The notes under the pieces are model-generated. The model ran no database searches. It was not told the DNA's origin and saw nothing but the letters and a program-made list of their open reading frames with translations. From Bacillales bacterium UBA6331 (GTDB taxonomy: Bacteria; Bacillota_I; Bacilli_A; RF39; UBA660), in the NCBI GenBank assembly GCA_002438065.1, contig DJSP01000093.1, positions 4,937 through 49,583 on the forward strand: a stretch of DNA of 44,647 bases. The letters run 5' to 3'. Made by a program: the position numbers and the translations under genes. Shown here piece after piece: positions 15,728 to 44,574 of the stretch. Numbering within the stretch: the first letter of the stretch is position 1; the number at the start of each line of letters is the position of its first letter.

Positions 15728-15868
15728 ATGGAAACACAAGAAATAGAATTAGATGGTAAAAAAATAGATATTGTAATTAAATTAAATGGAGAATATCCTA
15801 CCGATATTGATACTGATGATAATTATGGTAAAGATAATAATATAAATAATGGTGAAATACATGAATAA
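15728..15868 (+). CDS. Possible 46-aa acidic protein (METQEIELDGKKIDIVIKLNGEYPTDIDTDDNYGKDNNINNGEIHE)
   Basis: ORF found by hand. AAGGA SD lies 8 nt upstream. The stop overlaps the next ATG (ATGAATAA). Confidence 0.35.
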   Translation: METQEIELDGKKIDIVIKLNGEYPTDIDTDDNYGKDNNINNGEIHE

Positions 15869-17630
15869 TCCAGTAGAAATAGAAGAATTTTTAAAATATT
15901 ATGCAAGAATATATAACCAAAATCCGAATTTACCAATTGTTAGAGATACCATTTATCATGGTTTAACAACTTATGGAATAAGTGATGAGGAAAAGAAAAA
16001 CAAAAGTATTAAATATATGTTTCCTAAATGGATAAATTATTTTAAAAATAGTAATTTACATGTTTACGAAAGTGATATGCAAAAACATTTTCTTCAGTTT
16101 CACACATCTGATGGAAGAACAACTGAAGGTCATGTAAAAATTTATGCAACATTTGCCAAAGAAGATATGGAATCTTGCGTAATTCGTATATTTGATTATA
16201 TTAGTAAAAATAACTTTGCAACATATTCAAAAGTATCAGATGTCGTTAGAGCTGATTCTATAGTTTTAAGAATGGTTAATCCAAAAGAAGCAGATAAAGT
16301 TATCAATTTTATTAATAATGATCAATATTTATCTGGTAAAGCCCGTAAAACAAATCCATTTTTAATGAAAGTTGGAGTTGTTGGAATAGCAAGCGATAAA
16401 AATTTAAGTTATAATTCTTCAGTTGCCTTTCTCATAACCAGATATTTTAAGGAAACAACAAATTATGATAATGTAAGTTTTAATGATTTTAAGCAGTTTA
16501 CTAATAAATATTTTAATGATGTTTTTATAAATCAAACTAAATTACAAGATTTTATTTATGATGAAGAATTTCTTGTTAACAAAAAACGTTTTAATACTGA
16601 TGGAGAAGCTTTAGCAAATTTTTATGAAGTATTTAAATTAATAAATATGTCATTAAATAAATATACAAATATGAATGATTTTTATAATCATGTTTTAATG
16701 ACACAAAATGAAGAATCATCTCAAAGATTATTAAAATATTACGATATAAGTATTCGAAATATTGAAAACAAATTAGTAGCAAATAGCATAAATAAAAAAG
16801 AATTACTTGATGAGTACATTAAATATGCTATAAAAAAATATAATGGTGTTGATACCACGTTAAATTATTTAAAAATGTATATAAATGGTTATCAAAACGC
16901 AATTACAAGAGATAATAATTTTAGAACTAATTTTACTAAGTACCTTTCTCTAAAAGAGATTATAAACATAGCAAATGGAAATATCGAAGATTATGTTCAA
17001 AGTTTTATGCCAAATATGGTAAAAAATAATGATAATCTTTATGAACTATTTATAGCAGCAGTTACTGCAACTTACAATAAATATGGTTTTAATCATACCA
17101 AAGTTGCGTTAACATTATTTATTACCAAAAATGATACATGTCTTATCACCAATGGCAATCAAAACTATCGTAATAGATTGCTAAAGTATAGTCATGAAGA
17201 AATATTAAATGAATTTAAAGACCTTACTAAAAACTACACTCTAAATAATAATCAAGACGTATATAGTTATGTATTACTAACTATATTAAATAAAAAATAT
17301 AATAATGAAAATCAAGAAGAAAATATTCCAAATGGCTTATCTGCAAATAAACTTCCATATTATTTGCAAAAAGTAATTCAAATAATAACTCAAAATAGTG
17401 ATATTAATTTAGTAAATAGGCTGGTTCAAGAATTTTTTCAAGGAAATATAAGCAGTATTAAAAATATTCATGATGAAGACTTTGAAGTATTAAAAAGTTA
17501 TTCACAAGTAGAAATTCAAAACGCAATGTACACCTTAACAAAAGGATATAATCATGACTCAAATCAAAGTCTAATAAACTATATATGTACACTAAATCTA
17601 GAATCAAAAATTTCTAATAAACACATTTAA
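15861..17630 (+). CDS. Hypothetical 589-aa protein with no recognisable family
   Basis: Long intact ORF. The track start GTG 15849 is less likely than ATG 15861, which is coupled to the small upstream ORF. Nothing in it can be assigned to a known motif. Confidence 0.7.
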   Translation: MNNPVEIEEFLKYYARIYNQNPNLPIVRDTIYHGLTTYGISDEEKKNKSIKYMFPKWINYFKNSNLHVYESDMQKHFLQFHTSDGRTTEGHVKIYATFAKEDMESCVIRIFDYISKNNFATYSKVSDVVRADSIVLRMVNPKEADKVINFINNDQYLSGKARKTNPFLMKVGVVGIASDKNLSYNSSVAFLITRYFKETTNYDNVSFNDFKQFTNKYFNDVFINQTKLQDFIYDEEFLVNKKRFNTDGEALANFYEVFKLINMSLNKYTNMNDFYNHVLMTQNEESSQRLLKYYDISIRNIENKLVANSINKKELLDEYIKYAIKKYNGVDTTLNYLKMYINGYQNAITRDNNFRTNFTKYLSLKEIINIANGNIEDYVQSFMPNMVKNNDNLYELFIAAVTATYNKYGFNHTKVALTLFITKNDTCLITNGNQNYRNRLLKYSHEEILNEFKDLTKNYTLNNNQDVYSYVLLTILNKKYNNENQEENIPNGLSANKLPYYLQKVIQIITQNSDINLVNRLVQEFFQGNISSIKNIHDEDFEVLKSYSQVEIQNAMYTLTKGYNHDSNQSLINYICTLNLESKISNKHI

Positions 17631-19968: not shown

Positions 19969-21732
19969 ATGAATTTAAAAGATTTATATATCAATTATTT
20001 TGTAAGTAAAGGTCATAAACAAATTCCTTCAGCGCCAGTAGTACCTGAAAATGATGCAAGCGTTTTATTTAACACAGCTGGAATGCAGCCATTAATTCCA
20101 TATTTAATGGGAAAAGAACATCCTTATGGTAGAAGATTAACTGATTATCAAAAATGTATTAGAACTAATGATTTAGATTCTGTTGGAGATGAAACACATC
20201 ATACATTTTTTGAAATGTTAGGAAATTGGTCATTAGGTGATTATTTTAAAAATGAATCAATTGAATATAGTTTTGAGTTTTTAACCAAAGTATTAAATAT
20301 TGATGTTGAAAGATTAGCAATAACTGTATTTGCTGGTGACGATAAAATTCCTAAAGATACTGTATCAGGAAATAAATGGATTGAATTAGGCATTAATCCT
20401 AAAAAGATTGCTTATTTAGGTGAAGAAGATAATTTCTGGATTGCTGGAGAAAGTGGCCCATGTGGCTCAGATACTGAAATATTCTATTTTAGATCAAATG
20501 ATGAAATACCTGACTTTTTTGATCTAAGTGATAATAGATGGGTTGAAATTTGGAATAACGTGTTTATGCAATATTTTAAAGATGAAAATGGAAACGTTAC
20601 TGAATTGCCTAAAAAGAATGTTGATACAGGTATGGGGGTTGAAAGAGTAGCTGCTATATTAGAAGGTGTTAATGACAACTATTTATCATCAGTTTGGATA
20701 GATGTTATTAAATTAATTGAACAAATTTCTAATAAAAAATATGAAGAAAATAAAAAAGATATTAGAATTATAGCTGATCATATTAGAACTGCTACATTTA
20801 TCTTAGGAGATAACGCTAAAATAGTCCCTTCAAATACCGATAGAGGATATATTTTAAGAAGATTAATTAGACGTGCAATTAGATGTGCTAGAAACCTAGG
20901 AATTGATAATAACACTAACTGGGAAGAACAAATTGCCAATCTAATTATCGAAAAATATGCTAAATATTATGAAGAATTATCTAATAATAAAGAATTTATA
21001 ATTACTGAACTTGCTAAAGAGAAATCTAAATTTAGTAAAACATTAGAAAAAGGTTTAAGAGTATTTGAAAAAGAAACTCAAAAAGTCAAAACAATTGATA
21101 AAGATTTAGCGTTCAAATTATATGACACATTTGGTTTTCCGATAGAACTAACAGAAGAACTTGCTAAAGAAAAAAATTTAGAAGTAGATATCGAAGGATT
21201 TAAAGAAAAATTTAAAGCTCACCAAGAATTATCAAGAACTGCTTCAAAAGGTATGTTTAAAGGTGGCTTAGCAGGAGATTCACAAATCGAAACAAGATAT
21301 CATACTGCAACCCATTTACTTAATGCAGCCCTTAAAAAAGTGTTAAATGGAGATGTCCATCAAAAGGGTTCAAATATTACAAATGAAAGAATGCGTTTTG
21401 ACTTCTCATTTGACCGTAAACTTACCAAAGAAGAATTAGATCAAGCTGAAAATCTAGTTAACGAATGGATCCAAAGAGATTTAATTGTTACAGTAGCTGA
21501 AGAAAACAAAATGGATGCAGTACAAAGTGGTGCCGAAGCAATGTTTATCGAAAGATATCCTGATATTGTAACTGTTTATACAATAAGTGATAGAACAACA
21601 GGTGAAGTAATATCTAAAGAAATTTGTATGGGACCACACGTTGAACATACAAGTGAAATTGGCAAATTTAAAATAGTAAAAGAAGAGGCATCATCAGCAG
21701 GTGTAAGACGTATTAAAGCCGTAATTGAATAA
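19969..21732 (+). CDS. alaS: Alanine--tRNA ligase, short form (587 aa, no C-Ala domain)
   Basis: Class II core (FNTAGMQPL, HHTFFEMLGNWSLGDYFK), editing-domain motifs HTATHLL and CMGPHV. The protein ends just after GVRRIKAV. Confidence 0.93.
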   Translation: MNLKDLYINYFVSKGHKQIPSAPVVPENDASVLFNTAGMQPLIPYLMGKEHPYGRRLTDYQKCIRTNDLDSVGDETHHTFFEMLGNWSLGDYFKNESIEYSFEFLTKVLNIDVERLAITVFAGDDKIPKDTVSGNKWIELGINPKKIAYLGEEDNFWIAGESGPCGSDTEIFYFRSNDEIPDFFDLSDNRWVEIWNNVFMQYFKDENGNVTELPKKNVDTGMGVERVAAILEGVNDNYLSSVWIDVIKLIEQISNKKYEENKKDIRIIADHIRTATFILGDNAKIVPSNTDRGYILRRLIRRAIRCARNLGIDNNTNWEEQIANLIIEKYAKYYEELSNNKEFIITELAKEKSKFSKTLEKGLRVFEKETQKVKTIDKDLAFKLYDTFGFPIELTEELAKEKNLEVDIEGFKEKFKAHQELSRTASKGMFKGGLAGDSQIETRYHTATHLLNAALKKVLNGDVHQKGSNITNERMRFDFSFDRKLTKEELDQAENLVNEWIQRDLIVTVAEENKMDAVQSGAEAMFIERYPDIVTVYTISDRTTGEVISKEICMGPHVEHTSEIGKFKIVKEEASSAGVRRIKAVIE

Positions 21733-21821: not shown

Positions 21822-22334
21822 ATGAAAAATATAAACTTGCTAAATCCTTATTCATTCCATTATTTATGGAAAAATGAAATAGGTAAAAATTTTATTTGTG
21901 CTTTGGCAAACGAAATAATTAATGATAATGAAGATTATGTACTTTTACCCTTTGTTAATGATAATTTAAATAATGTTAGAAGTTACGTAATACTAGAATC
22001 AGAAACAAAAGTATTATTTATTGATTTTAACTTCAAAGAAAATGATAATTTATTAAAAACTGATTTACTATTAATGAAGTATCTAAGATATACAAATAAA
22101 AAGAATGTTAAATTAATCATAGTTAATGATTATAATGGTTTGAATAATGAAATAGACAATATTATTGATATTTACAATAATGACGATATTAGTTCAAATT
22201 GTAAATTACTTTATGCTAAAAAATATAAAGAACAATCTTTGATCAATAAAGATATAGCTGATATTTTAAATAGTATGAATAATGATGAATATAAAATCTA
22301 TCAGCATGAAAATATGTTAAAAGATAGAATATAA
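21822..22334 (+). CDS. Hypothetical 170-aa protein
   Basis: ORF with an AGGAGG SD. The N-terminus is faintly reminiscent of PD-(D/E)XK/Rpn-like proteins, but I cannot support that assignment. Confidence 0.5.
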   Translation: MKNINLLNPYSFHYLWKNEIGKNFICALANEIINDNEDYVLLPFVNDNLNNVRSYVILESETKVLFIDFNFKENDNLLKTDLLLMKYLRYTNKKNVKLIIVNDYNGLNNEIDNIIDIYNNDDISSNCKLLYAKKYKEQSLINKDIADILNSMNNDEYKIYQHENMLKDRI

Positions 22335-22340
22335 AGGAAT

Positions 22341-24125
22341 GTGATAATAATGCAAAACATCCGTAACTTTTGTATAATTGCTCATATTGATCATGGTAAA
22401 AGCACACTAGCTGATCGAATTCTAGAACTTACCGGAGCAGTATCCAAAAGAGAACTAAAAGAACAAATGCTGGATTCAATGGATATTGAAAGAGAAAGAG
22501 GAATTACAATTAAGTTAAATACCGTAAATTTAAATTATAAAGGCTATGAATTTAATCTAATAGATACACCAGGACACGTTGATTTTTCCTATGAAGTTTC
22601 TAGAAGTTTAGCTGCTTGTGATGGTGCAATTCTTGTTGTAGATGCAACTCAAGGAATTGAAGCCCAAACGCTTGCTAATTTATATCTAGCTTTAAATCAT
22701 AATTTAACAATTATACCTGTAATTAATAAAATTGATTTACCAAATGCCGACGTTCCTAAAGTAACAGCCGAATTAGTTAAAGTTCTTGGCTTTAAGAAAG
22801 ATGAAATTATACCTGTAAGTGGTAAAACTGGTGAAAATGTTAATTTATTACTTGATGCTATAATTGAAAGAATACAGCCACCGCAAGATTTAAAAGAAGG
22901 AACTAAAGCTCTAATTTTTGATTCTTATTTTGATCAATATAAAGGAGTAGTTGCATCAATATGTGTGAAATCCGGTTCTATTAAAATTGGTGATACAATT
23001 ATTATGATGAACAACAACGAAGAATACGTAGTAACTGAAGTAGGAGTAAATACTCCAAATGAAAAATTATTACCTGAATTAAAAGCCGGAGATGTAGGAT
23101 GGGTTGCTGGTGCTATAAAAAGTGTTGAATCAGTACGTGTTGGCGATACAATTACAACTAAACGTGATAGAGCAATAACACCTCTAGAAGGATATAAAAA
23201 AGTTAAATCAATGGTTTATAGTGGAATATATCCAATTGAGCCAAATAAATATAATCATTTAAAAGAAGCACTAGAAAAATTAAAATTAAACGATGCTTCT
23301 CTTACCTTTGAAGTAGAAACATCAGAAGCCTTAGGTTTTGGATTTAGATGTGGATTTTTAGGACTACTTCATATGGAAATAATTGAAGAAAGAATTAAAA
23401 GAGAATTTGGTATTGATATAATTGCTACATCTCCATCTGTTATCTATAAAGTAGAATTAACTAATGGAAATGTAATTGAAGTAGATAATCCATCAAAAAT
23501 GCCAAATAAGGTCAATATTAGTTCAATAAGTGAGCCATTTGTTAAAGCAAGTATATTTGTTCCAAGTGAATACATTGGTGCTATAATGGAACTCTGTCAA
23601 GAAAAAAGAGGTATATATAAAACAACAGAATATATTGATGAGAAAAGAGTTAATATAATATATGAATTACCACTTGCCGAAATTGTCTATGACTTCTTTG
23701 ATAAATTAAAAAGTTATACTAAAGGATATGCTTCATTTGATTATGAATTATCCGATTACAAGGCAAGTGATTTAGTAAAAATGGACATCTTAATTAATGG
23801 TGAAATAGTTGATGCTTTATCTGTTATTGTACATAAAGATGCTGCATATCATCGTGGTTTAGCAATTACAAAAGCTTTAAAAGAACTAATTCCAAGGCAA
23901 CTATTTGAAGTACCTATTCAAGCATCAATTGGTTCAAAAGTAATCGCTAGAGAAAACATTGCTCAAATGAGAAAAAATGTACTTGCTAAATGTTATGGTG
24001 GCGATATATCTCGTAAAAGAAAACTACTAGAAAAACAAAAAGAAGGTAAAAAAAGAATGAAGATGGTTGGATCTGTTGAAGTTCCACCTGAAGCATTCCT
24101 ATCTATCTTAAAGACTGATAAATAA
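22341..24125 (+). CDS. lepA: Elongation factor 4 (LepA)
   Basis: [20 protein letters not shown] and DTPGHVDF motifs, with the LepA-specific C-terminus [25 protein letters not shown]. Confidence 0.97.
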
Positions 24126-26384: not shown

Positions 26385-26413
26385 TTGAAAATAGTATATT
26401 TAATTGCTATATT
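26385..26413 (+). promoter_or_regulatory. Candidate promoter of the island operon (TTGAAA-17-TATATT)
   Basis: ttgaaa at 26385-26390, tatatt at 26408-26413. An AAGGAAAGGA SD precedes the ATG at 26445. Confidence 0.5.
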
Positions 26414-26444: not shown

Positions 26445-27782
26445 ATGAAAAAAACTTTTAATAATAAAAAATACATCGATTTACAAACTAAAAAATTAAT
26501 GGAGAGTATTAATCCTAGATTTGACCATGTATATTTAGAAATTGGAGGAAAATTTTTTGACGACCAACATGCTTCAAGAGTACTTTCAGGTTTTAATCCA
26601 AGCGTTAAATATGAAATAATAAACCAGTTAAATATAGAAAAAGAGTTTATTATTTGTATTAGTACCAAATCAATTAAAAAAAGTAAAAAAAGAAGGGATT
26701 CAAAAAAGTTGTATACTTACGAATGCTTTGAAATTGCAAAAAAGTTAAAAAATGACGGTTATAAGGTCTCAATATGTATAACCGGATATCACTCTTGTGC
26801 AAAAGCAAATTCATTTATAACAAAAATGAACAGTGAAGGATTTAATATATATAAATTATATGAAATGTCAGATTATCCATACAATCAAGAAAAAATCTTA
26901 TCAAAAGAAGGATTAGCACAAAATGATTATATACCTGTCGAAAAAAAACTTATTTGTATCATTGCACCAGGTCCAGATTCAGGCAAATTTGCAGCTGCTA
27001 TTTCACAAATATATCATGAAAATATCCTTCAACGTAAAATTTCTACATATAGAAAATTTGAAACTTTTTTAATACCAGAATTATCTATCAACAATCCAAT
27101 AAATTTAGCTAGCTCCATAGCAATGTGTGACGTTTCAGGTAATGATACAATCGATAAACGTTATTTTAGAAAAACTGGGAAAATATGTTGTTTAGATGAA
27201 AGAGACAATGCTTCATTTGAATTATTATATAAAATAATACCAGATGAAGATAAAGATGAAATAAGTTCCTTTTCTGAAACAATCATAAATTGCATACTTG
27301 ATTGTATATTTGATTTAGAAAGTGCAGAAAATCATGCCATCAAAGAAATAATTCGAAGATACAAAGAAGCAAAAAAAATGTATGATAGTGGTAAATTAAG
27401 TCAAATAGAATACAATGAAGCGCTACGCATTTATAACTTAATAAATTCTAAAATAGGCATGTCTGAAAACGAGATAAATTTTTTTCTTAAAGAAGCTATT
27501 GATTTTTGGGGATATGATTGTCAAAGTAATGTTTGTTTAGAAGAATTAGGAGAATTAATACAAGCAATATGTAAATATAAAAGAGAAGAATATGAAAAAG
27601 CACCACAAAAAATAAAAGACAATTTATTAGAAGAAATAGCCGATGTTCATAATATGATTAATCAATTAGAAATGTATTTTGGATATGAAGAAATTAAAAA
27701 AATTAGAATCAAAAAAATATTTAGAACTAGAGAACTACTAAGACAAGAAATGTTAGAAGAGTCATTGAAAGTAGAAAATTAA
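26445..27782 (+). CDS. DUF1846 (UPF0371)-family N-terminal region fused to a MazG-like all-alpha NTP pyrophosphohydrolase domain
   Basis: The N-terminal ~330 aa match the UPF0371 pattern as I remember it (YLEIGGKFFDDQHASRVLSGF, IIAPGPDSGKF, YRKFETF). The last ~100 aa carry EELGELIQAICKY...LLEEIADVHNMINQL, which is typical of MazG/dCTPase-like domains. Confidence 0.6.
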   Translation: MKKTFNNKKYIDLQTKKLMESINPRFDHVYLEIGGKFFDDQHASRVLSGFNPSVKYEIINQLNIEKEFIICISTKSIKKSKKRRDSKKLYTYECFEIAKKLKNDGYKVSICITGYHSCAKANSFITKMNSEGFNIYKLYEMSDYPYNQEKILSKEGLAQNDYIPVEKKLICIIAPGPDSGKFAAAISQIYHENILQRKISTYRKFETFLIPELSINNPINLASSIAMCDVSGNDTIDKRYFRKTGKICCLDERDNASFELLYKIIPDEDKDEISSFSETIINCILDCIFDLESAENHAIKEIIRRYKEAKKMYDSGKLSQIEYNEALRIYNLINSKIGMSENEINFFLKEAIDFWGYDCQSNVCLEELGELIQAICKYKREEYEKAPQKIKDNLLEEIADVHNMINQLEMYFGYEEIKKIRIKKIFRTRELLRQEMLEESLKVEN

Positions 27783-27783
27783 C

Positions 27784-28239
27784 ATGTACGTTTTTTTAGC
27801 ATCACCATTTTCCCAATTTTGTGAAGGATATGAAGACATTATTATTAAAGACAGATGGTTTTTTGAAGAAATAATTAAAAATTTAAAGAATAATAATATA
27901 GATTATTTTTGTTCTCAAGAACGCGAAGCATGGGGTGAAAAATATATAAGCCCAGATGAGAGTATCAATGAAGACGTGAATGGTATCAAAAAATGTGATC
28001 TATTTATTGGGATTCCAGGAAATCCAATTTCCGGTGGAGTTCATGTTGAAATAGGATGGGCAAGTATGCTAAATAAGAAAATAATTCTATTTTTAGATAA
28101 AAATACAGAATATAGTCCTATGATATTAGGATTACCAAGTTTGTTCAATTGTGATTTAATTTACTACGATAAGTTATTGACTATGAAAACAGTAAAACTA
28201 ATCACAGATGTAATTCAAAAGGAGAAAAAATGTATATAA
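27784..28239 (+). CDS. Nucleoside 2-deoxyribosyltransferase-fold protein (possible nucleotide N-glycosidase)
   Basis: 151 aa. The N-terminus is VFLASPFS, and GIPGNPISGGVHVEIGWASMLNKKIILF carries the conserved Glu. The fold family includes the CMP hydrolases BlsM and MilB. Confidence 0.55.
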   Translation: MYVFLASPFSQFCEGYEDIIIKDRWFFEEIIKNLKNNNIDYFCSQEREAWGEKYISPDESINEDVNGIKKCDLFIGIPGNPISGGVHVEIGWASMLNKKIILFLDKNTEYSPMILGLPSLFNCDLIYYDKLLTMKTVKLITDVIQKEKKCI

Positions 28240-29240
28240 AACTTTTTAAAGATATCTTAGCAAAAAATAAAAATAACAATAGTCCAATATATAGTTTTAT
28301 TTCTGTATCTAACAAATGTAATGCTAATTGTAAATTTTGTGATATCCACGAAAAAAAGGAAATAAATACTTCAATTGATATAAAGAAATTATTAAAGGAT
28401 TTAAAAGAATCCGAAATCAAGTATGTTCATTTTACTGGTGGTGGGGAACCACTAGCAAACAAAGAAATATACTCATATTTTGAGGAAGCAACTAATTTAG
28501 GATTAAATATAGTTTTTATTACGAACGGATATTTTCTAAACGACAAGATAATAGATGAGTTAGGCAAATACAATATAAAAGCTATTTTCTTTTCTATAGA
28601 TAGTCACATAAAAGAAATTCATGACAAAACTAGGAATGTTCCAGGAATATTTGATAAAGCAACTTATTCAATAAATGCTATCAAATTAAAATATCCAAAC
28701 ATAAAAATAATTATAAATCATGTATTAAACAGAGATAACATTGACAATTTAGAAGATTTCATCAAAATGAAAAACAAATATAAATATGATTATTTAAATA
28801 TATTAATAGTTAAAGAATGTCCAGAGTATTATTTTAACAAAGAACAAATTATAAATTATAACAATAAAATAAATAACATAAAAAAATTAATGAAAGCAAA
28901 CAATGTGCAATTATTAGCAGATGAGCTAGATTATTTTTCCTCAAACTGTTACACCGAAGATGGTTCAGATTTAAGAAAAAATGCAATACCATGTCAAATA
29001 CTTAACTATTGTTGTTTTATAGATTGTGTTTCAGGAAATGTTTATCCATGCGATTGCAGTGTTCATAGAGATTATAATTATTATTGTATGGGAAATATAA
29101 AGCAAAACTCAATTAAAGAAATAATGAATTCAGAAAAAGCATCAAAATTACGAAAGGAATTATTAAAATGCAGTAAATGTAAAAGTAAATGTGATTATGC
29201 TAACATGTATTTTAATAAAGTAATAAATGAAAAACAATAA
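28230..29240 (+). CDS. Radical SAM enzyme with a C-terminal SPASM/twitch-like Cys-rich domain
   Basis: CNANCKFC (CX3CX2C) near the N-terminus and a GGGEPL SAM-binding motif. The C-terminus is Cys-rich: CQILNYCCFIDC...PCDC...CSKCKSKC. Confidence 0.85.
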   Translation: MYIKLFKDILAKNKNNNSPIYSFISVSNKCNANCKFCDIHEKKEINTSIDIKKLLKDLKESEIKYVHFTGGGEPLANKEIYSYFEEATNLGLNIVFITNGYFLNDKIIDELGKYNIKAIFFSIDSHIKEIHDKTRNVPGIFDKATYSINAIKLKYPNIKIIINHVLNRDNIDNLEDFIKMKNKYKYDYLNILIVKECPEYYFNKEQIINYNNKINNIKKLMKANNVQLLADELDYFSSNCYTEDGSDLRKNAIPCQILNYCCFIDCVSGNVYPCDCSVHRDYNYYCMGNIKQNSIKEIMNSEKASKLRKELLKCSKCKSKCDYANMYFNKVINEKQ

Positions 29241-30330
29241 TTATGTATTTTTAGCTGATGCTTTTGGTTATGGGCCAATAAATACACTTTGTCAAATAGT
29301 AATCGAATTGAAAAAAAAATTAAAAGGCAATTATATATTTGTTGGACCAAAAATGTGTATATCACAAGCAAAAAAATATAATATTTTCCATGAATTTATA
29401 GAAATGAATTACACAAACAACGAAATTAATCAAAATAAGGAAACATTTTTAAATGCAAATAAAATAATTGCGGTCGAAACAACCGATATATTAATTTATC
29501 TGATAAATCATTACAAAATCAAAAATATATATTTAATTGATAATTTGTTTTGGATGTGGGATTATTTAGAACCAGAATTAAAAGAAATAAAAAAATATTA
29601 TATTTCTAAGGTTATAGATTGTTCGTCTAATATTGAAAGAATAGCAAAAGATTTTAGTAATTTAATGTCAGTTGGTGCATTAAGGCAAATGAACAAGTTT
29701 AAAAAAATCACCAAAAATAATTTAATAATATCTCTTGGTGGTGCAGAATCTTATATGTTTTCAGAAAATGATATTGAAGATTATTACCTAAATACAATCA
29801 AAATAATTTTAGACACAAAATACATTAATAAATTCAGTAAAATATATATTGCTGGTGGCGAAAGTATTATAAAATACTTGAAGAAAAACATCATAAATGA
29901 AAGAGTAGAAATAAAAACCTATAATAATTCAGAATATTTAAATATTTTATATAATTGTTCACACGCAATAATGTCTCCAGGACTAGGAAATTTTAATGAA
30001 GTTATCTCCACAGATATCAAGTGTTTATTTTTACTACCAATAAATTATAGTCAATATTTACAAAGAAATATATATAAGTCACTTAATATAGGTTTTCACT
30101 TTCAAGAAAATAATAAAGAAAAACATATAGCAAAATACTTAAGTGAAGATGAAGGCGTTCAAAAAGTAATAAACAACTTAAAATGTTATGATTTTTATGC
30201 ATTTAAAGAAGAGTTAACGTCGTACTTCGAAGATATTTCAAACACAATGAAAAGAGAAGAATTTTATAATACAATAGATAAAAATGGTATTAAAGAAATC
30301 TGCAACGATATTTTAAAGGAGGAACAATGA
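29227..30330 (+). CDS. GT-B-fold glycosyltransferase-like protein
   Basis: 367 aa. The N-terminus is FLADAFGYGPINTL. The C-terminal half has ISLGGAES...IAGGE...MSPGLGNFNEV...LLPINYSQYLQ, resembling GT1/GT28 donor-binding motifs. The sequence is divergent. Confidence 0.45.
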   Translation: MKNNNYVFLADAFGYGPINTLCQIVIELKKKLKGNYIFVGPKMCISQAKKYNIFHEFIEMNYTNNEINQNKETFLNANKIIAVETTDILIYLINHYKIKNIYLIDNLFWMWDYLEPELKEIKKYYISKVIDCSSNIERIAKDFSNLMSVGALRQMNKFKKITKNNLIISLGGAESYMFSENDIEDYYLNTIKIILDTKYINKFSKIYIAGGESIIKYLKKNIINERVEIKTYNNSEYLNILYNCSHAIMSPGLGNFNEVISTDIKCLFLLPINYSQYLQRNIYKSLNIGFHFQENNKEKHIAKYLSEDEGVQKVINNLKCYDFYAFKEELTSYFEDISNTMKREEFYNTIDKNGIKEICNDILKEEQ

Positions 30331-31457
30331 GAAAAATAAATGAAGATGCATTTTATGGTTTAAATAGAATTAACCTAAGTGAAATAATTGAAGTTTCAAA
30401 AATGCTACGAAACAAAAGCTTATTTAGGTATGACGGTGTAAAAATGCAATATGAAACTGATAAAGTCGAGCAAAAATTAAGTGATTTTTTTAAACAAGAG
30501 ATACTATGTGTTAATAATGGAACATCGGCTTTAAAACTATGTTTACTTGCCAATAACATTGGTTATGGAGATGAGGTCATAGTGCCATGTTTATCATTTA
30601 TTGCAACAGCAGCATGTTGTTTAACAGTTGGAGCAATTCCAGTTTTTTGTGAAATAAACAATACATTTAATATTGATCCGAAAGAAATTGAAAAAAATAT
30701 TACAAAAAAAACAAAAGCTATTATTGTTGTACATTATCAAGGATATCCATGTGAAATGAATGAAATAGAAAAAATAGCTCGAAAACATAACCTAATAATA
30801 ATAGAAGATACTGCACAAGCATTTGGTGCAAAATACAGTAATAAATTACTAGGTACATATGGGCAATCGGCTGCATTTAGTTTTCAATCATGTAAAATTA
30901 TTACATGTGGCGAAGGTGGTGCAGTAACTAGTAAAGTGAATTTTGACTTTATTAAAAGATACGCAGACAATGGTGGATATCGTAAAAAAGATATGATGCC
31001 AGTTTGGGACAAAGATTTTTGCACATATGGAGAAAACTTTAAAATGACAGATTTGCAGAGTGCAATATTAATAAAGCAATTCAAAAAACTTAATAAAATA
31101 ATTCAATATCAAAGATTTCTTTATAATTATATAACTAATAACATAACAAATTATAACCTTAGAAAAAGCGTTGATATCAACGGAAGTATAAATATGAGCT
31201 TATGTGTAATATTTAATAATATGAAAGAATGTAATAAATTTATATCTTATATGAATAAATATGACATTCCATTTGGCAAAAGGACATCAAATTTTTTACC
31301 AAATTATAACGTCTTTAAAAATAAATCTAAAGTAAATAATTGTCAAAAAAGTTACAATTTATTAGATAGAAGTGCCTGGTTAGTTTTAAACTCTAACCTT
31401 TCCAAATCGGATTGTAAGTATATTATTAAAGTAATGGAAGAATATCATGGAAAATAA
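30327..31457 (+). CDS. DegT/DnrJ/EryC1/StrS-family PLP-dependent sugar aminotransferase
   Basis: NGTSALKLCL, GDEVIVPCLSFIATA, IIEDTAQAFGA, and the Schiff-base Lys in FSFQSCKIITCGEGG. GGAGG SD and an ATGA overlap with the upstream ORF. Confidence 0.88.
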   Translation: MRKINEDAFYGLNRINLSEIIEVSKMLRNKSLFRYDGVKMQYETDKVEQKLSDFFKQEILCVNNGTSALKLCLLANNIGYGDEVIVPCLSFIATAACCLTVGAIPVFCEINNTFNIDPKEIEKNITKKTKAIIVVHYQGYPCEMNEIEKIARKHNLIIIEDTAQAFGAKYSNKLLGTYGQSAAFSFQSCKIITCGEGGAVTSKVNFDFIKRYADNGGYRKKDMMPVWDKDFCTYGENFKMTDLQSAILIKQFKKLNKIIQYQRFLYNYITNNITNYNLRKSVDINGSINMSLCVIFNNMKECNKFISYMNKYDIPFGKRTSNFLPNYNVFKNKSKVNNCQKSYNLLDRSAWLVLNSNLSKSDCKYIIKVMEEYHGK

Positions 31458-32274
31458 TTTTACAAACGATATCATTTACAGAAATTCATTATATTATCGT
31501 TTTAATTACAAAAAAATTAAATCTTTGAAAAGCATAGATTTAATAAGATATTATGATGGATTAAATTGCTTTCAGTATTTCGAATTTAATATTACGGAAG
31601 AAGATATTCAAGATTTAATTAAAATAAATAAAAAAAATGACATCAAATTTAGATATATAGATGAAAACTCAAATATTTACAAAATATTATCACAGAGATT
31701 TATAATAAAAAAAACAGATGAATGGTACTCACCCATAATAGAAATTAAGAAAAATAATTTTCAAGATTACGTTCAATCCAAATCCAATAATTTTAAAAGG
31801 TTAATCAAAAAATGTCAATTATATAATAAACAAATAAAAGTAGTTAAATCTAATAAAAATAATATTAATAATTTATTTAAAGATGTATTATTAGTGGATC
31901 AAAAAAGTTGGAAAGCAAGAGAAAAAAGTGATATGTTTAATCTTGATAATGAACAAATAATATATTTATCGATGTTAAAATATTGCGACATTGTAGTAGC
32001 ATATAAGTGTAATACACCAATTGGATACTCATTATTAATACAATATAATAACAAATATTACGCAGCAAAATGGGGAGCAACAAATGATGGACGCAAATTA
32101 AATGCAGGGATAATTTGCTTATTAACTCAAATCAAAAAAATAAGTTCAAATAAAGACTTATATTTAGATTTATGGGGAAGGAGAAATAAAATATATGACA
32201 GAATGGCCACTTCTTATAAAAAAAGATTATATTTTAGCATAATAAAAAATGATAATAAAAAAAGAACAAATTAA
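31447..32274 (+). CDS. GNAT-fold (Fem/CelD-like) acyl- or aminoacyl-transferase
   Basis: The C-terminal half (WKAREKSDMF...IGYSLLIQYNNKYYAAKWGATNDGRKLNAGIICLL) resembles the BioF2-like/Fem-type acetyltransferase fold. Confidence 0.4.
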   Translation: MENNFTNDIIYRNSLYYRFNYKKIKSLKSIDLIRYYDGLNCFQYFEFNITEEDIQDLIKINKKNDIKFRYIDENSNIYKILSQRFIIKKTDEWYSPIIEIKKNNFQDYVQSKSNNFKRLIKKCQLYNKQIKVVKSNKNNINNLFKDVLLVDQKSWKAREKSDMFNLDNEQIIYLSMLKYCDIVVAYKCNTPIGYSLLIQYNNKYYAAKWGATNDGRKLNAGIICLLTQIKKISSNKDLYLDLWGRRNKIYDRMATSYKKRLYFSIIKNDNKKRTN

Positions 32275-44382: not shown

Positions 44383-44399
44383 ATTATCCCTCCAAAATA

Positions 44400-44567
44400 A
44401 AAACCTAACTAGACATCAATTGTGATAAAATCCCGCATTCTCGCAGGTGGGCATCACATAAAGAACTTTAGGATTCTAACTCTTTGAGCTAGCATTCAAC
44501 ACCATCCTTTAATTAGATTCCCTTACATCACACATAGTCGGTTTTATGTAAATCGACATCTATTAGG
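44400..44567 (-). ncRNA. ssrS: Structured small RNA of about 165 nt, candidate 6S RNA
   Basis: GC-enriched island in AT-rich DNA.
- Terminal helix: on the minus strand the 5' arm CCUAAUAGAUGUCGAU (44567-44552) pairs with the 3' arm AUUGAUGUCUAGUUAGG (44420-44404). That is 16 bp with one bulge and three G-U pairs, and the G-U pairs work only for the minus-strand transcript.
- Internal hairpins: CCUGC-GAGAAU-GCGGG and AAAGAG/UUCUUU.
- Flanks: a U-run follows the 3' arm, and a consensus promoter lies just upstream.
- Synteny: it lies upstream of the yrvM homologue, as B. subtilis bsrA does. Confidence 0.45.
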
Positions 44568-44574
44568 TAATTTA

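Follow-up and report, generated by a model that had tools for sequence, protein, structure and literature searches.

A candidate gene cluster for a cytosylglucuronate-type peptidyl nucleoside in Bacillales bacterium UBA6331, with relatives in other bacterial genomes

We describe a 12-gene unit in a stretch of 44,647 nucleotides from Bacillales bacterium UBA6331 (GenBank assembly GCA_002438065.1, contig DJSP01000093.1, positions 4,937 to 49,583 of the forward strand; hereafter the window). The unit spans 26445-38935, with all of its genes listed on the + strand, and we consider it reasonably probable that it is one biosynthetic cluster for a ribosome-targeting peptidyl nucleoside with a cytosine pyranosyl (cytosylglucuronate-type) core and a 4'-amine. 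The best explanation of the unit is a counterpart, in low-GC anaerobes, of the blasticidin S, mildiomycin and arginomycin pathways. Confidence is higher for the first two predicted steps, the hydrolysis of cytidine monophosphate (CMP) and the coupling of cytosine to a sugar, than for the reading as a whole. Homology, active-site conservation, predicted folds, gene linkage and domain fusions were all observed, and the context of the genes, that is, their co-occurrence and fusions, is the strongest evidence for the pathway.

Results

A prediction made earlier from the letters of the window alone (the original prediction) had described four adjacent and translationally coupled genes, for a nucleoside 2-deoxyribosyltransferase (NDT)-fold protein, a radical S-adenosylmethionine (SAM)/SPASM enzyme, a GT-B-like glycosyltransferase (GT) and a DegT-type aminotransferase, and had likened them to the Bls and Mil enzymes of blasticidin S and mildiomycin biosynthesis. 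As shown in Table 1, all four open reading frames (ORFs) lie where they had been placed, on the + strand, and encode 151, 336, 367 and 376 amino acids, respectively. The gaps at the junctions from the UPF0371 fusion gene through this core are +1, -10, -14 and -4 nt, and the core genes are for this reason regarded as translationally coupled. The region described earlier covers the core only: in order, the conserved unit consists of the UPF0371 fusion, NDT, radical SAM, GT and DegT genes, orf275, orf317, and the genes for a short DegT-like enzyme, a class I aminotransferase, a PHP-family phosphoesterase, an APH-type kinase and an ABC-F ATPase. The Bls/Mil four-class core stands; the original prediction left out MilD, the DegT enzyme of mildiomycin biosynthesis, and missed eight further genes.

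The NDT-fold protein belongs on sequence grounds to the CMP N-glycosidase clade, whose activity it is predicted to share. Its Pfam Nuc_deoxyrib_tr score of 29.5 bits is barely above the cut-off. Compared with all PDB sequences, the protein matched BcmB (4JEN, deposited under the name 'CMP N-glycosidase') at 3.7e-25, MilB (4JEM) at 9.6e-23 and BlsM (5VTO) at 2.2e-20, against 2.8e-4 for the best true deoxyribosyltransferase (9EMW) and 0.045 for DNPH1. In MilB, Phe22, Glu62, Asp78, Ser97 and Gly99 contact the base, ribose and phosphate, and the E103A mutant is catalytically inactive (PMC4081090); the corresponding residues of the window protein, F9, E48, D64, S83, G85 and E89, are invariant in eight cluster-linked loci. 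Enzymes acting on hydroxymethyl-CMP (hmCMP) are recognized by Arg or Lys at MilB position 23 and are genetically linked to a ThyA/MilA-like hydroxymethylase, and the CMP-specific BlsM has Met25 at the position of MilB Arg23 (PMC4081090). This position is Ser10 in the window protein and Ser or Thr in 8/8 loci, and no ThyA/MilA-like (thymidylate-synthase-like) gene was present in any cluster version examined; because of these two findings, CMP rather than hmCMP is the predicted substrate and cytosine the predicted product. The N-terminal motif of these enzymes, F-L-(G/A)-(G/A)-P-F-X-X-L-(L/V/T), in which the first X is Arg or Lys only in hmCMP-specific members (PMC4081090), reads F-L-A-S-P-F-S-Q-F-C in the window protein, with the P-F core kept and three deviations (Ser for G/A, Phe for L and Cys for L/V/T).

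The GT has no Pfam domain and no sequence match in the PDB, and a profile of 30 GT sequences searched against the PDB gave nothing above noise, the best value being E 0.006 with an unrelated protein. An AlphaFold (AF2) model with a predicted local distance difference test (pLDDT) score of 92.7 has the GT-B fold, and a Foldseek search with it was headed by GT1 small-molecule and natural-product enzymes (OleI/OleD, plant UGTs, YjiC/YojK, GtfB and CalG1), with MurG at rank 22. The GT has 41 close relatives at 90% clustering, and a search of 1.84 billion proteins with the 30-sequence profile collected 1,186 representatives at E <= 0.001. When the 30 family members were scanned singly, 28 matched just one meaningful NCBIfam model, TIGR04467 (hydroxymethyl-cytosylglucuronate/cytosylglucuronate (CGA) synthase), with 6.8e-15 as the best value; more distant, higher-GC members align to it end to end, with up to 112 bits. 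Because these intermediates cover the whole TIGR04467 model, homology of the GT to BlsD/MilC is established; by sequence, the GT is a distant relative of CGA synthase, a homologue and not an equivalog member. Further, the GT and glycosidase genes share a coupled operon, in which the GT gene comes second after the glycosidase gene, and fused proteins occur in the wider GT family, joining NDT to GT in seven representatives, GT to DegT in two and GT to a radical SAM/SPASM enzyme in one. An NDT-GT fusion is what would be expected from a pathway that releases cytosine and then re-glycosylates it.

In the radical SAM enzyme, we found the motifs C30NANC34KFC37 and G70GGEP and a Cys-rich SPASM/twitch tail. 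BlsE has CxxxCxxC and GGEP motifs, with C31xxxC35xM37C38 as its cluster motif; Met thus occupies the aromatic position of the CxxxCxxC motif in BlsE (PMC3715490), where the window enzyme has Phe. BlsE (7VOB, 'cytosylglucuronate decarboxylase') was the best match in the PDB, at 2.4e-16 with the single sequence and 2.6e-22 by profile. Searched against solved structures, the profile of seven orthologues scored 82.5 bits with BlsE, 50.9 with SkfB, 45.9 with BtrN (4e-11), ~38 with viperins and 24 with DesII, which makes BlsE the nearest characterized relative among solved structures. Near the C terminus, YPCDCSVHRD of the window enzyme aligns with YACSCLPHRE of BlsE, so that the two share a YxCxCxxHR(D/E) stretch. 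The label 'BlsE-like' is used here because of the PDB ranking and the gene context; the enzyme resembles BlsE loosely, at a level short of family membership.

The DegT protein scored 255.5 bits with PF01041 (cut-off 19.8) and carries D161..Q164 and S185FQSCK190, in which K190 is the Schiff-base Lys. Its relatives in the PDB are sugar aminotransferases of no particular kind, among them Kdo8N transaminase, perosamine synthetase, QdtB and, at 1.8e-39, BtrR. As a generic sugar aminotransferase, it fits the BlsH/MilD role at the level of enzyme class.

The four core genes co-occur in at least four gene arrangements in unrelated genomes, and the flanking genes differ each time (Table 1). Identity to the window proteins is 45-70% in four other contexts from metagenome-assembled genomes (MAGs) and 32-42% in two Paenibacillus genomes; because the set is conserved in all of these, it is not a chance grouping. 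The arrangement listed as variant 2, which is without the UPF0371 fusion and the class I aminotransferase, is much commoner in metagenomes than the window type, and its orf317 homologue was found in 88 blocks of the collection. The 90% cluster of the GT contains 36 member sequences, single members of which occur on up to 70 contigs. The two Paenibacillus species are cultured and experimentally tractable. Among their additional genes are those for NTP_transf_5, Aminotran_3, an arginase-fold protein, GNAT and a second radical SAM enzyme in P. periandrae and for a PEP-utilising enzyme and DUF1152 in P. faecalis.

Of the genes around the core, orf317 bears most directly on the peptidyl arm. The protein carries no annotation from its sequence, but its AF2 model (pLDDT 91.0) matched FemX of Weissella in Foldseek (TMq 0.71), and also FemA and MprF, and it matched the aminoacyl-tRNA-dependent peptide synthases Sbb17/Sba18, solved with streptothrisamine, with TMt 0.76. 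The L004 orthologue of orf317 passes Pfam Acetyltransf_6, and K315 near the C terminus is invariant in 30 sequences; this residue might be the counterpart of FemX Lys305 (PMC12945691). The preceding gene, orf275, is kept in all MAG-type clusters, and its L004 orthologue scored 23.4 bits (Pfam cut-off 22). Sequence profiles of orf275 and orf317 gave no real matches in the PDB. We do not call orf275 a Fem paralogue of orf317 because hhalign detected no similarity between the two; it is possibly a second acyl or aminoacyl transferase.

In the first gene product of the unit, PDB entries 7F00 and 3BH1 match residues 2-324 only. The C-terminal part carries E367/E370 and E397/D400 (ExxE...ExxD), a signature of all-alpha NTP pyrophosphatases of the MazG type that is invariant in five orthologues, and its assignment to MazG is by motif only (Pfam MazG is weak, E 0.17, and the PDB profile search of this part was empty). 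The fusion gene opens the cluster in L002, L004, L006 and L008, and a possible role of its product is to supply CMP from CTP. UPF0371 proteins are usually ~495 amino acids long, and their usual C-terminal domain is here replaced by the ~115-amino acid region with the MazG signature; the fusion could be a first functional clue for this uncharacterized family.

Two further pyridoxal 5'-phosphate (PLP)-type enzymes follow orf317. The short DegT-like enzyme, whose start at 33195 was taken from the gene calls of L013-L015, has D106xxQ109 and S124FSKNK129 in all orthologues and possibly performs a second amination or a dehydration step. The class I aminotransferase (mechanical ORF from 34030) is specific to this cluster variant, being absent from L008 and L011, and may make or modify an amino-acid side chain.

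The PHP gene is split by its in-frame stop codon into parts of 140 and 123 amino acids, and the split is identical in three independent assemblies of the species (L013, L014 and L015); therefore, the TAG reflects no sequencing error but either a nonsense mutation that has become fixed or a site of read-through. Intact orthologues of 284-301 amino acids are present in L002, L004, L006, L008 and L011. The nearest family of the protein is 3',5'-nucleoside bisphosphate phosphatase (112 bits, cut-off 400).

The kinase gene next to it, the mechanical ORF of which begins at 36352, is conserved in every MAG-type cluster. The sequence places its product in the APH fold, near the APH(3') family, and it is not to be called an aminoglycoside resistance gene; we propose that the kinase phosphorylates the product or an intermediate, either for self-protection or as a pro-drug step.

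The ABC-F protein has Pfam ABC_tran twice together with ABC_tran_Xtn, and no membrane domain. It scored 463.3 bits with the ribosomal-protection model NF000355, above the cut-off of 380, as did the cluster-linked proteins of L004 (440) and L006 (450). Its score with the EttA model, 396 bits, is short of 599, and the scores with all named subfamilies are far under their cut-offs. The gene is cluster-linked in five different flanking contexts and has a promoter-like site of its own at 37192-37220. From its sequence, we propose that this ABC-F is a self-resistance factor. Like the ribosomal protection proteins TlrC/CarA/OleB/SrmB, Vga, Lsa, Sal and OptrA, it is without membrane domains, and like the producer ABC-Fs, it lies in a biosynthetic cluster, but it falls in none of the named subfamilies.

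Table 1. Features of the cluster and the related loci in other genomes. Positions refer to the window unless a locus (L) is named.
Feature	Position	Strand	Evidence and predicted role
Promoter-like site (TTGAAA, 17 nt spacer, TG-TATATT)	26385..26413	+	Consensus match only, in the 163-nt gap 5' of the first cluster gene
UPF0371 (DUF1846) N-domain fused to a MazG-like C-terminal region (~residues 330-445)	26445..27782	+	Pfam DUF1846 3.7e-72, residues 4-324
CMP N-glycosidase, MilB/BlsM/BcmB type, NDT fold	27784..28239	+	PDB sequence matches, kept residues; predicted to free cytosine from CMP
Radical SAM/SPASM enzyme, BlsE-like	28230..29240	+	Pfam Radical_SAM 8e-20, SPASM 2e-8; predicted action at C4' of a cytosyl-hexose
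GT-B glycosyltransferase, distant BlsD/MilC homologue	29227..30330	+	TIGR04467 via family, AlphaFold model; predicted coupling of cytosine to UDP-hexuronate/UDP-hexose
DegT/DnrJ/EryC1 PLP sugar aminotransferase, BlsH/MilD role	30327..31457	+	Pfam PF01041 1.2e-75; predicted to install the 4'-amine
orf275, 275 aa, weak GNAT (Acetyltransf_6/FemAB-like) C-terminal signature	31447..32274	+	FemAB_like E 0.0025, Acetyltransf_6 E 0.012
orf317, putative FemX-fold double-GNAT aminoacyl-tRNA transferase	32249..33202	+	AF2 model; predicted addition of an amino acid to the sugar amine
Short DegT-like PLP enzyme, 290 aa, divergent C-terminal half	33195..34067	+	Pfam DegT 9.6e-9, N-terminal part only
Class I/II PLP aminotransferase-fold enzyme	34042..35511	+	Pfam Aminotran_1_2 2.3e-27, NCBIfam GntC-like 1.4e-31, both sub-cut-off
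PHP-family phosphoesterase, split by in-frame TAG at 35957-35959	35537..36406	+	Apparent pseudogene in this species
APH(3')-like small-molecule O-phosphotransferase	36403..37167	+	NCBIfam APH_3p, Pfam APH 2e-13
ABC-F ATPase, ribosomal-protection type	37268..38935	+	NF000355
Terminator-like hairpin and T-run	38917..38938	+	End of the ABC-F gene
12-gene cassette	L002/L007		Goat-rumen Bacilli MAG; rpsB/tsf upstream, IS110 downstream
12-gene cassette	L004		690-kb contig; VanY upstream, MutS downstream
12-gene cassette	L006		Uncultured 'Eubacteriales' MAG
12-gene cassette	L008		Uncultured Clostridia MAG; without class I aminotransferase, APH/PHP inverted
Variant 2 (PHP, NDT, radical SAM, GT, DegT, 280 aa, 319 aa, methyltransferase, short DegT, ABC-F, APH)	L011 4452-15166, L012		
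Radical SAM, GT, DegT, NDT and other tailoring genes	L001		Paenibacillus faecalis
NDT, further genes, then radical SAM, GT, DegT and other tailoring genes	L005		Paenibacillus periandrae

The cluster has a G+C content of 0.249, the same as its flanks, in a window of ~25% G+C read with the standard bacterial code. The flanks are chromosomal housekeeping genes (rpoC, dnaK, pepF, RNase HIII, alaS, lepA and mnmA). Promoter-like sites around the cluster are no commoner than in shuffled sequence, and the position of the site at 26385..26413 suits the start of an operon. Terminator-like sites number three in 17.5 kb, which is not above chance expectation; the hairpin at the end of the ABC-F gene is likely the 3' end of the unit. 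The Rfam scan found no riboswitch or leader near the cluster. An alternative code with TGA as a sense codon, raised by the split-looking alaS and PHP genes, was rejected: the codon that interrupts PHP is TAG, and TGA serves as a stop at the coupled junctions.

Several observations concern the rest of the window. Its sole Rfam family is 6S RNA (RF00013), at 44398-44572 on the - strand with 50.3 bits (gathering score 46.4), and no tRNA genes were found in it. The alanyl-tRNA synthetase (19969-21732) is short, at 587 amino acids, and ends past the tRNA_SAD domain; 3' of it lies a separate 170-amino acid ORF without a Pfam match (21822-22334). Because L013 shows the same layout, the short enzyme looks genuine for the lineage. 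A 593-amino acid ORF at 15849-17630 has no Pfam domain. Directly 3' of the ABC-F gene, a 258-amino acid protein with a weak HTH (39013-39789) is present in this species only, outside the conserved cassette, and might be a local regulator. The nearest named relatives of LepA (22341-24125) are from 'Bacilli bacterium' and 'Mollicutes bacterium' MAGs, at 74-81% identity. One 97%-identical LepA is deposited as a partial MAG protein of Bacteroides xylanisolvens, probably through the mis-binning of a contig in that public MAG. The host is an uncultured gut-associated member of the Bacilli, probably with a small genome.

Discussion

The pathway that we propose joins these genes in one sequence of steps, in which we infer the substrates, the order of the steps, the identity of the sugar and the amino acid and the biological target. 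The NDT-fold enzyme would hydrolyse CMP, rather than 5-hydroxymethyl-CMP, to cytosine and ribose 5-phosphate, and the CGA-synthase-like GT-B enzyme would join the cytosine to a UDP-hexuronate or UDP-hexose, most likely UDP-glucuronate. The radical SAM enzyme would then abstract a hydrogen from C4' to give either a 3'-deoxy-4'-keto intermediate, by dehydration of the BlsE type, or a plain 4'-ketone, by dehydrogenation of the BtrN type. BlsE is said, in work by Lee et al. in JACS in 2022, to carry out a radical 1,2-diol dehydration to 3'-deoxy-4'-keto-CGA; the data fit equally well the BtrN-type route, through a 4'-ketone to a core like that of gougerotin. Transamination of the ketone by the DegT enzyme would yield the 4'-amine, which FemX-fold orf317, perhaps together with orf275, would acylate with one or more amino acids derived from aminoacyl-tRNA to form the peptidyl arm. 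The short DegT-like enzyme, the class I aminotransferase and the UPF0371/MazG-like fusion may tailor the product or supply precursors, and the APH kinase (with the PHP phosphatase in relatives) and ABC-F would shield the ribosome of the producer. It is from this protection of the producer by kinase and ABC-F that the ribosome is predicted to be the target of the product.

Of the characterized systems, the bls pathway of Streptomyces griseochromogenes uses the same four enzyme classes (BlsM, BlsD, BlsE and BlsH) for the same first four steps. The window proteins are distant from it in sequence, far below the equivalog cut-offs, and whereas the bls host is an actinomycete, the hosts of the window-type clusters are low-GC anaerobes. 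The NDT-fold protein shares with BlsM a non-basic residue where MilB has Arg23, and its predicted specificity is for CMP. In the bls pathway, the amide bond is made by an ATP-dependent ligase, a guanidino methyltransferase acts, and self-protection is by leucylation; in the window cluster, by comparison, a Fem-type transferase is the candidate for the amide bond and ABC-F and the APH kinase are the candidates for resistance. An arginine 2,3-aminomutase, which bls has, was not found among the window cluster genes scanned.

The mil operon contains MilC, MilD (DegT) and MilG (radical SAM) with MilH, a putative tRNA-dependent aminoacyltransferase (PMC11784345), and MilB, MilC, MilG, MilD and MilH map one-to-one onto five adjacent genes here, the match of orf317 to MilH being one of predicted function. 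In contrast to mil, the window cluster has no MilA-type CMP hydroxymethylase and has Ser in place of Arg23, so that cytosine and not 5-hydroxymethylcytosine would be expected, and no counterparts of MilM/MilN, the genes for the arginine-derived side chain, were seen in it. The closest solved relative of the NDT-fold protein, BcmB of the bacimethrin pathway of Clostridium botulinum (4JEN), is likewise an enzyme of a low-GC Firmicute. The end product there, bacimethrin, is a free pyrimidine, and no glycosyltransferase, radical SAM enzyme or DegT enzyme is known to act in its formation. BcmB differs from the window protein, which has Ser at the Arg23 position, in having Lys there and in preferring hmCMP (PMC4081090).

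Fem-like double-GNAT enzymes make amide bonds in several antibiotic pathways and acylate amino-sugar antibiotics such as streptothrisamine (PMC12945691). On its model, orf317 would have the same double-GNAT fold as Orf11/Sbb17/Sba18 (BD-12, streptothricin-type), PacB, VlmA and DhpH-C, with TM 0.69-0.76 to Sbb17/Sba18. The concept is likewise the same, an amide formed on the amine of an amino sugar from aminoacyl-tRNA (PMC12945691), the donor and acceptor of orf317 being predicted, but sequence identity to these peptide synthases is only 12-14%.

The original prediction had placed its match at the level of family and gene set, and at that level it holds: what we see is distant homology with strong context, not orthology. 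It had also named three outcomes that would speak against it, a radical SAM enzyme grouping with sulfatase or peptide maturases, a GT grouping with MurG or cell-wall GTs and an NDT-fold protein without its catalytic Glu or nucleotide-binding residues. The NDT-fold protein proved to have the catalytic Glu (E89, MilB E103) and all of the MilB substrate contacts, Foldseek placed GT1 UGTs and not MurG or cell-wall GTs nearest to the GT, and no anaerobic sulfatase maturase was among the profile matches of the radical SAM enzyme to solved structures, in which BlsE came first.

Other results weigh against a cytosylglucuronate-type pathway. No protein reaches an equivalog cut-off (80/400 bits for BlsE, 27.5/300 for CGA synthase and 185/205 for APH(3')). 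The match of the window GT to TIGR04467 is confined to residues 163-282 at 27.5 bits, below the equivalog cut-off of 300, and its likeness to BlsD/MilC comes through the family model and the intermediates. The radical SAM enzyme scored 80.3 bits with TIGR04466 (BlsE), far below its cut-off of 400 and tied with WgkB (87.7), a tungsten-cofactor maturase (83.4) and AhbD (80.9), themselves far below their cut-offs; across the seven orthologues, the NCBIfam scan likewise did not separate BlsE from other SPASM enzymes. The kinase scored 185.1 bits with NF033068 (APH(3')), where 205 is required. The cassette contains no exporter, UDP-glucose dehydrogenase or regulator, and given the broken PHP gene, the pathway may be altered or decaying in this species. 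Finally, no product has been observed, and nothing in the literature that we searched describes clusters of this kind from Firmicutes or gut bacteria, or a bagougeramine cluster; a search on BlsH and cytosinine brought up unrelated papers only. Bagougeramine, a relative of gougerotin, comes from a 'Bacillus circulans' strain.

Different readings of the genes were weighed with these points in mind. The original prediction had itself raised a BtrN/BtrS-like aminocyclitol route. In a butirosin-type aminocyclitol or aminoglycoside pathway, inositol or a sugar would be acted on by the radical SAM enzyme as a BtrN-like dehydrogenase and by the DegT enzyme in the manner of BtrS/BtrR, and the APH(3')-like kinase would be the producer's resistance. 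BtrN is among the PDB relatives of the radical SAM enzyme (4e-11 by profile), BtrR, a Gln:2-deoxy-scyllo-inosose aminotransferase, is a good match of the DegT protein (1.8e-39), and the kinase comes near to the APH(3') family (185 vs 205 bits). However, BlsE beats BtrN by 37 bits, the DegT similarity is generic, and no cluster version contains an inositol enzyme or a 2-deoxy-scyllo-inosose synthase, the absence of which had already been remarked on in the window. Such a route would also leave unexplained a CMP N-glycosidase with cytosine contacts and a CGA-synthase-related GT that is fused to the glycosidase elsewhere, and we regard it as highly improbable. Hardly more credible, and very unlikely in our view, is a cell-envelope pathway in which DegT, GT and Fem-type enzymes would decorate peptidoglycan, teichoic acid or capsule with amino sugars and peptides. 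Envelope biosynthesis typically involves DegT/GT pairs and Fem-type transferases, the latter in the formation of cell-wall cross-bridges; FemX heads the structural matches of orf317, and MurG is among the fold matches of the GT, but Fem-fold enzymes serve antibiotic pathways too, and MurG ranks behind soluble small-molecule GT1 enzymes, only at position 22. Moreover, membrane proteins, flippases, polymerases and lipid-carrier transferases are all absent from the cassette, which is an island at differing chromosomal places (beside IS110 in L002) and which always carries the CMP glycosidase, the APH kinase and the ribosome-protection ABC-F, three proteins without a role in the envelope.

A product with an intracellular function (an antiviral nucleoside analogue following viperin-like logic, a signal or a cofactor-like molecule), with ABC-F and the kinase in regulatory or housekeeping roles, is unlikely as well. 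It would account for a cassette without an exporter and for hosts that are reduced-genome gut bacteria rather than classic antibiotic producers, and the radical SAM enzyme has a generic similarity to prokaryotic viperins (PADLOC pVip 77 bits, NCBIfam 66 bits). Yet in a PADLOC scan of the ten cluster proteins other than ABC-F and PHP, nine had no match and the radical SAM enzyme only this generic one; the ABC-F passes the ribosomal-protection model (463 vs 380) and not EttA, Uup or YbiT; and the closest characterized pathways all yield ribosome-targeting antibiotics, blasticidin S and mildiomycin among them (PMC11784345). The three assemblies that share the TAG at 35957-35959 would suit a decaying or silent remnant, in which the nonsense codon in PHP is fixed and the cluster of this species no longer makes its product. 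None of the other eleven genes, however, is broken, and all are conserved and tightly coupled; as a phosphatase paired with a kinase, PHP probably acts at the periphery of the pathway; and L008 has rearranged PHP and APH with the core retained, so that we hold a remnant to be quite unlikely. Overall, the results argue for a cluster that makes a cytosine-based 4'-amino peptidyl nucleoside.

To our knowledge, the CGA-derived peptidyl nucleosides (blasticidin S, mildiomycin, arginomycin and gougerotin) have been characterized from actinomycetes. The class of chemistry is known; the novelty lies in the lineage, in the gene set with its Fem-type ligase, ABC-F, APH/PHP pair and UPF0371-MazG fusion, and in a GT family without a Pfam domain, for which, with ~1,200 representatives at 50% identity, the cluster provides a first functional context. 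Should our reading be true, CGA-type chemistry would extend to strictly host-associated, uncultured low-GC anaerobes. We put forward only tentatively, as somewhat short of an even chance, the wider view that uncultured small-genome Bacilli and Clostridia, abundant in the gut and rumen, use a fully anaerobic, tRNA-dependent route to a hitherto unknown family of translation inhibitors of the blasticidin/gougerotin class, that their ABC-Fs are a reservoir of resistance to antibiotics of the peptidyl transferase centre and that the kinase and phosphatase form a phospho-prodrug cycle. If the reading is correct, the cluster would be a source of a new scaffold for antibiotics that target the ribosome, of a compact enzyme set with which aminohexuronate nucleosides could be made anaerobically and of a tRNA-dependent route to the peptide arm, and its ABC-F would be a candidate new resistance determinant circulating in gut communities.

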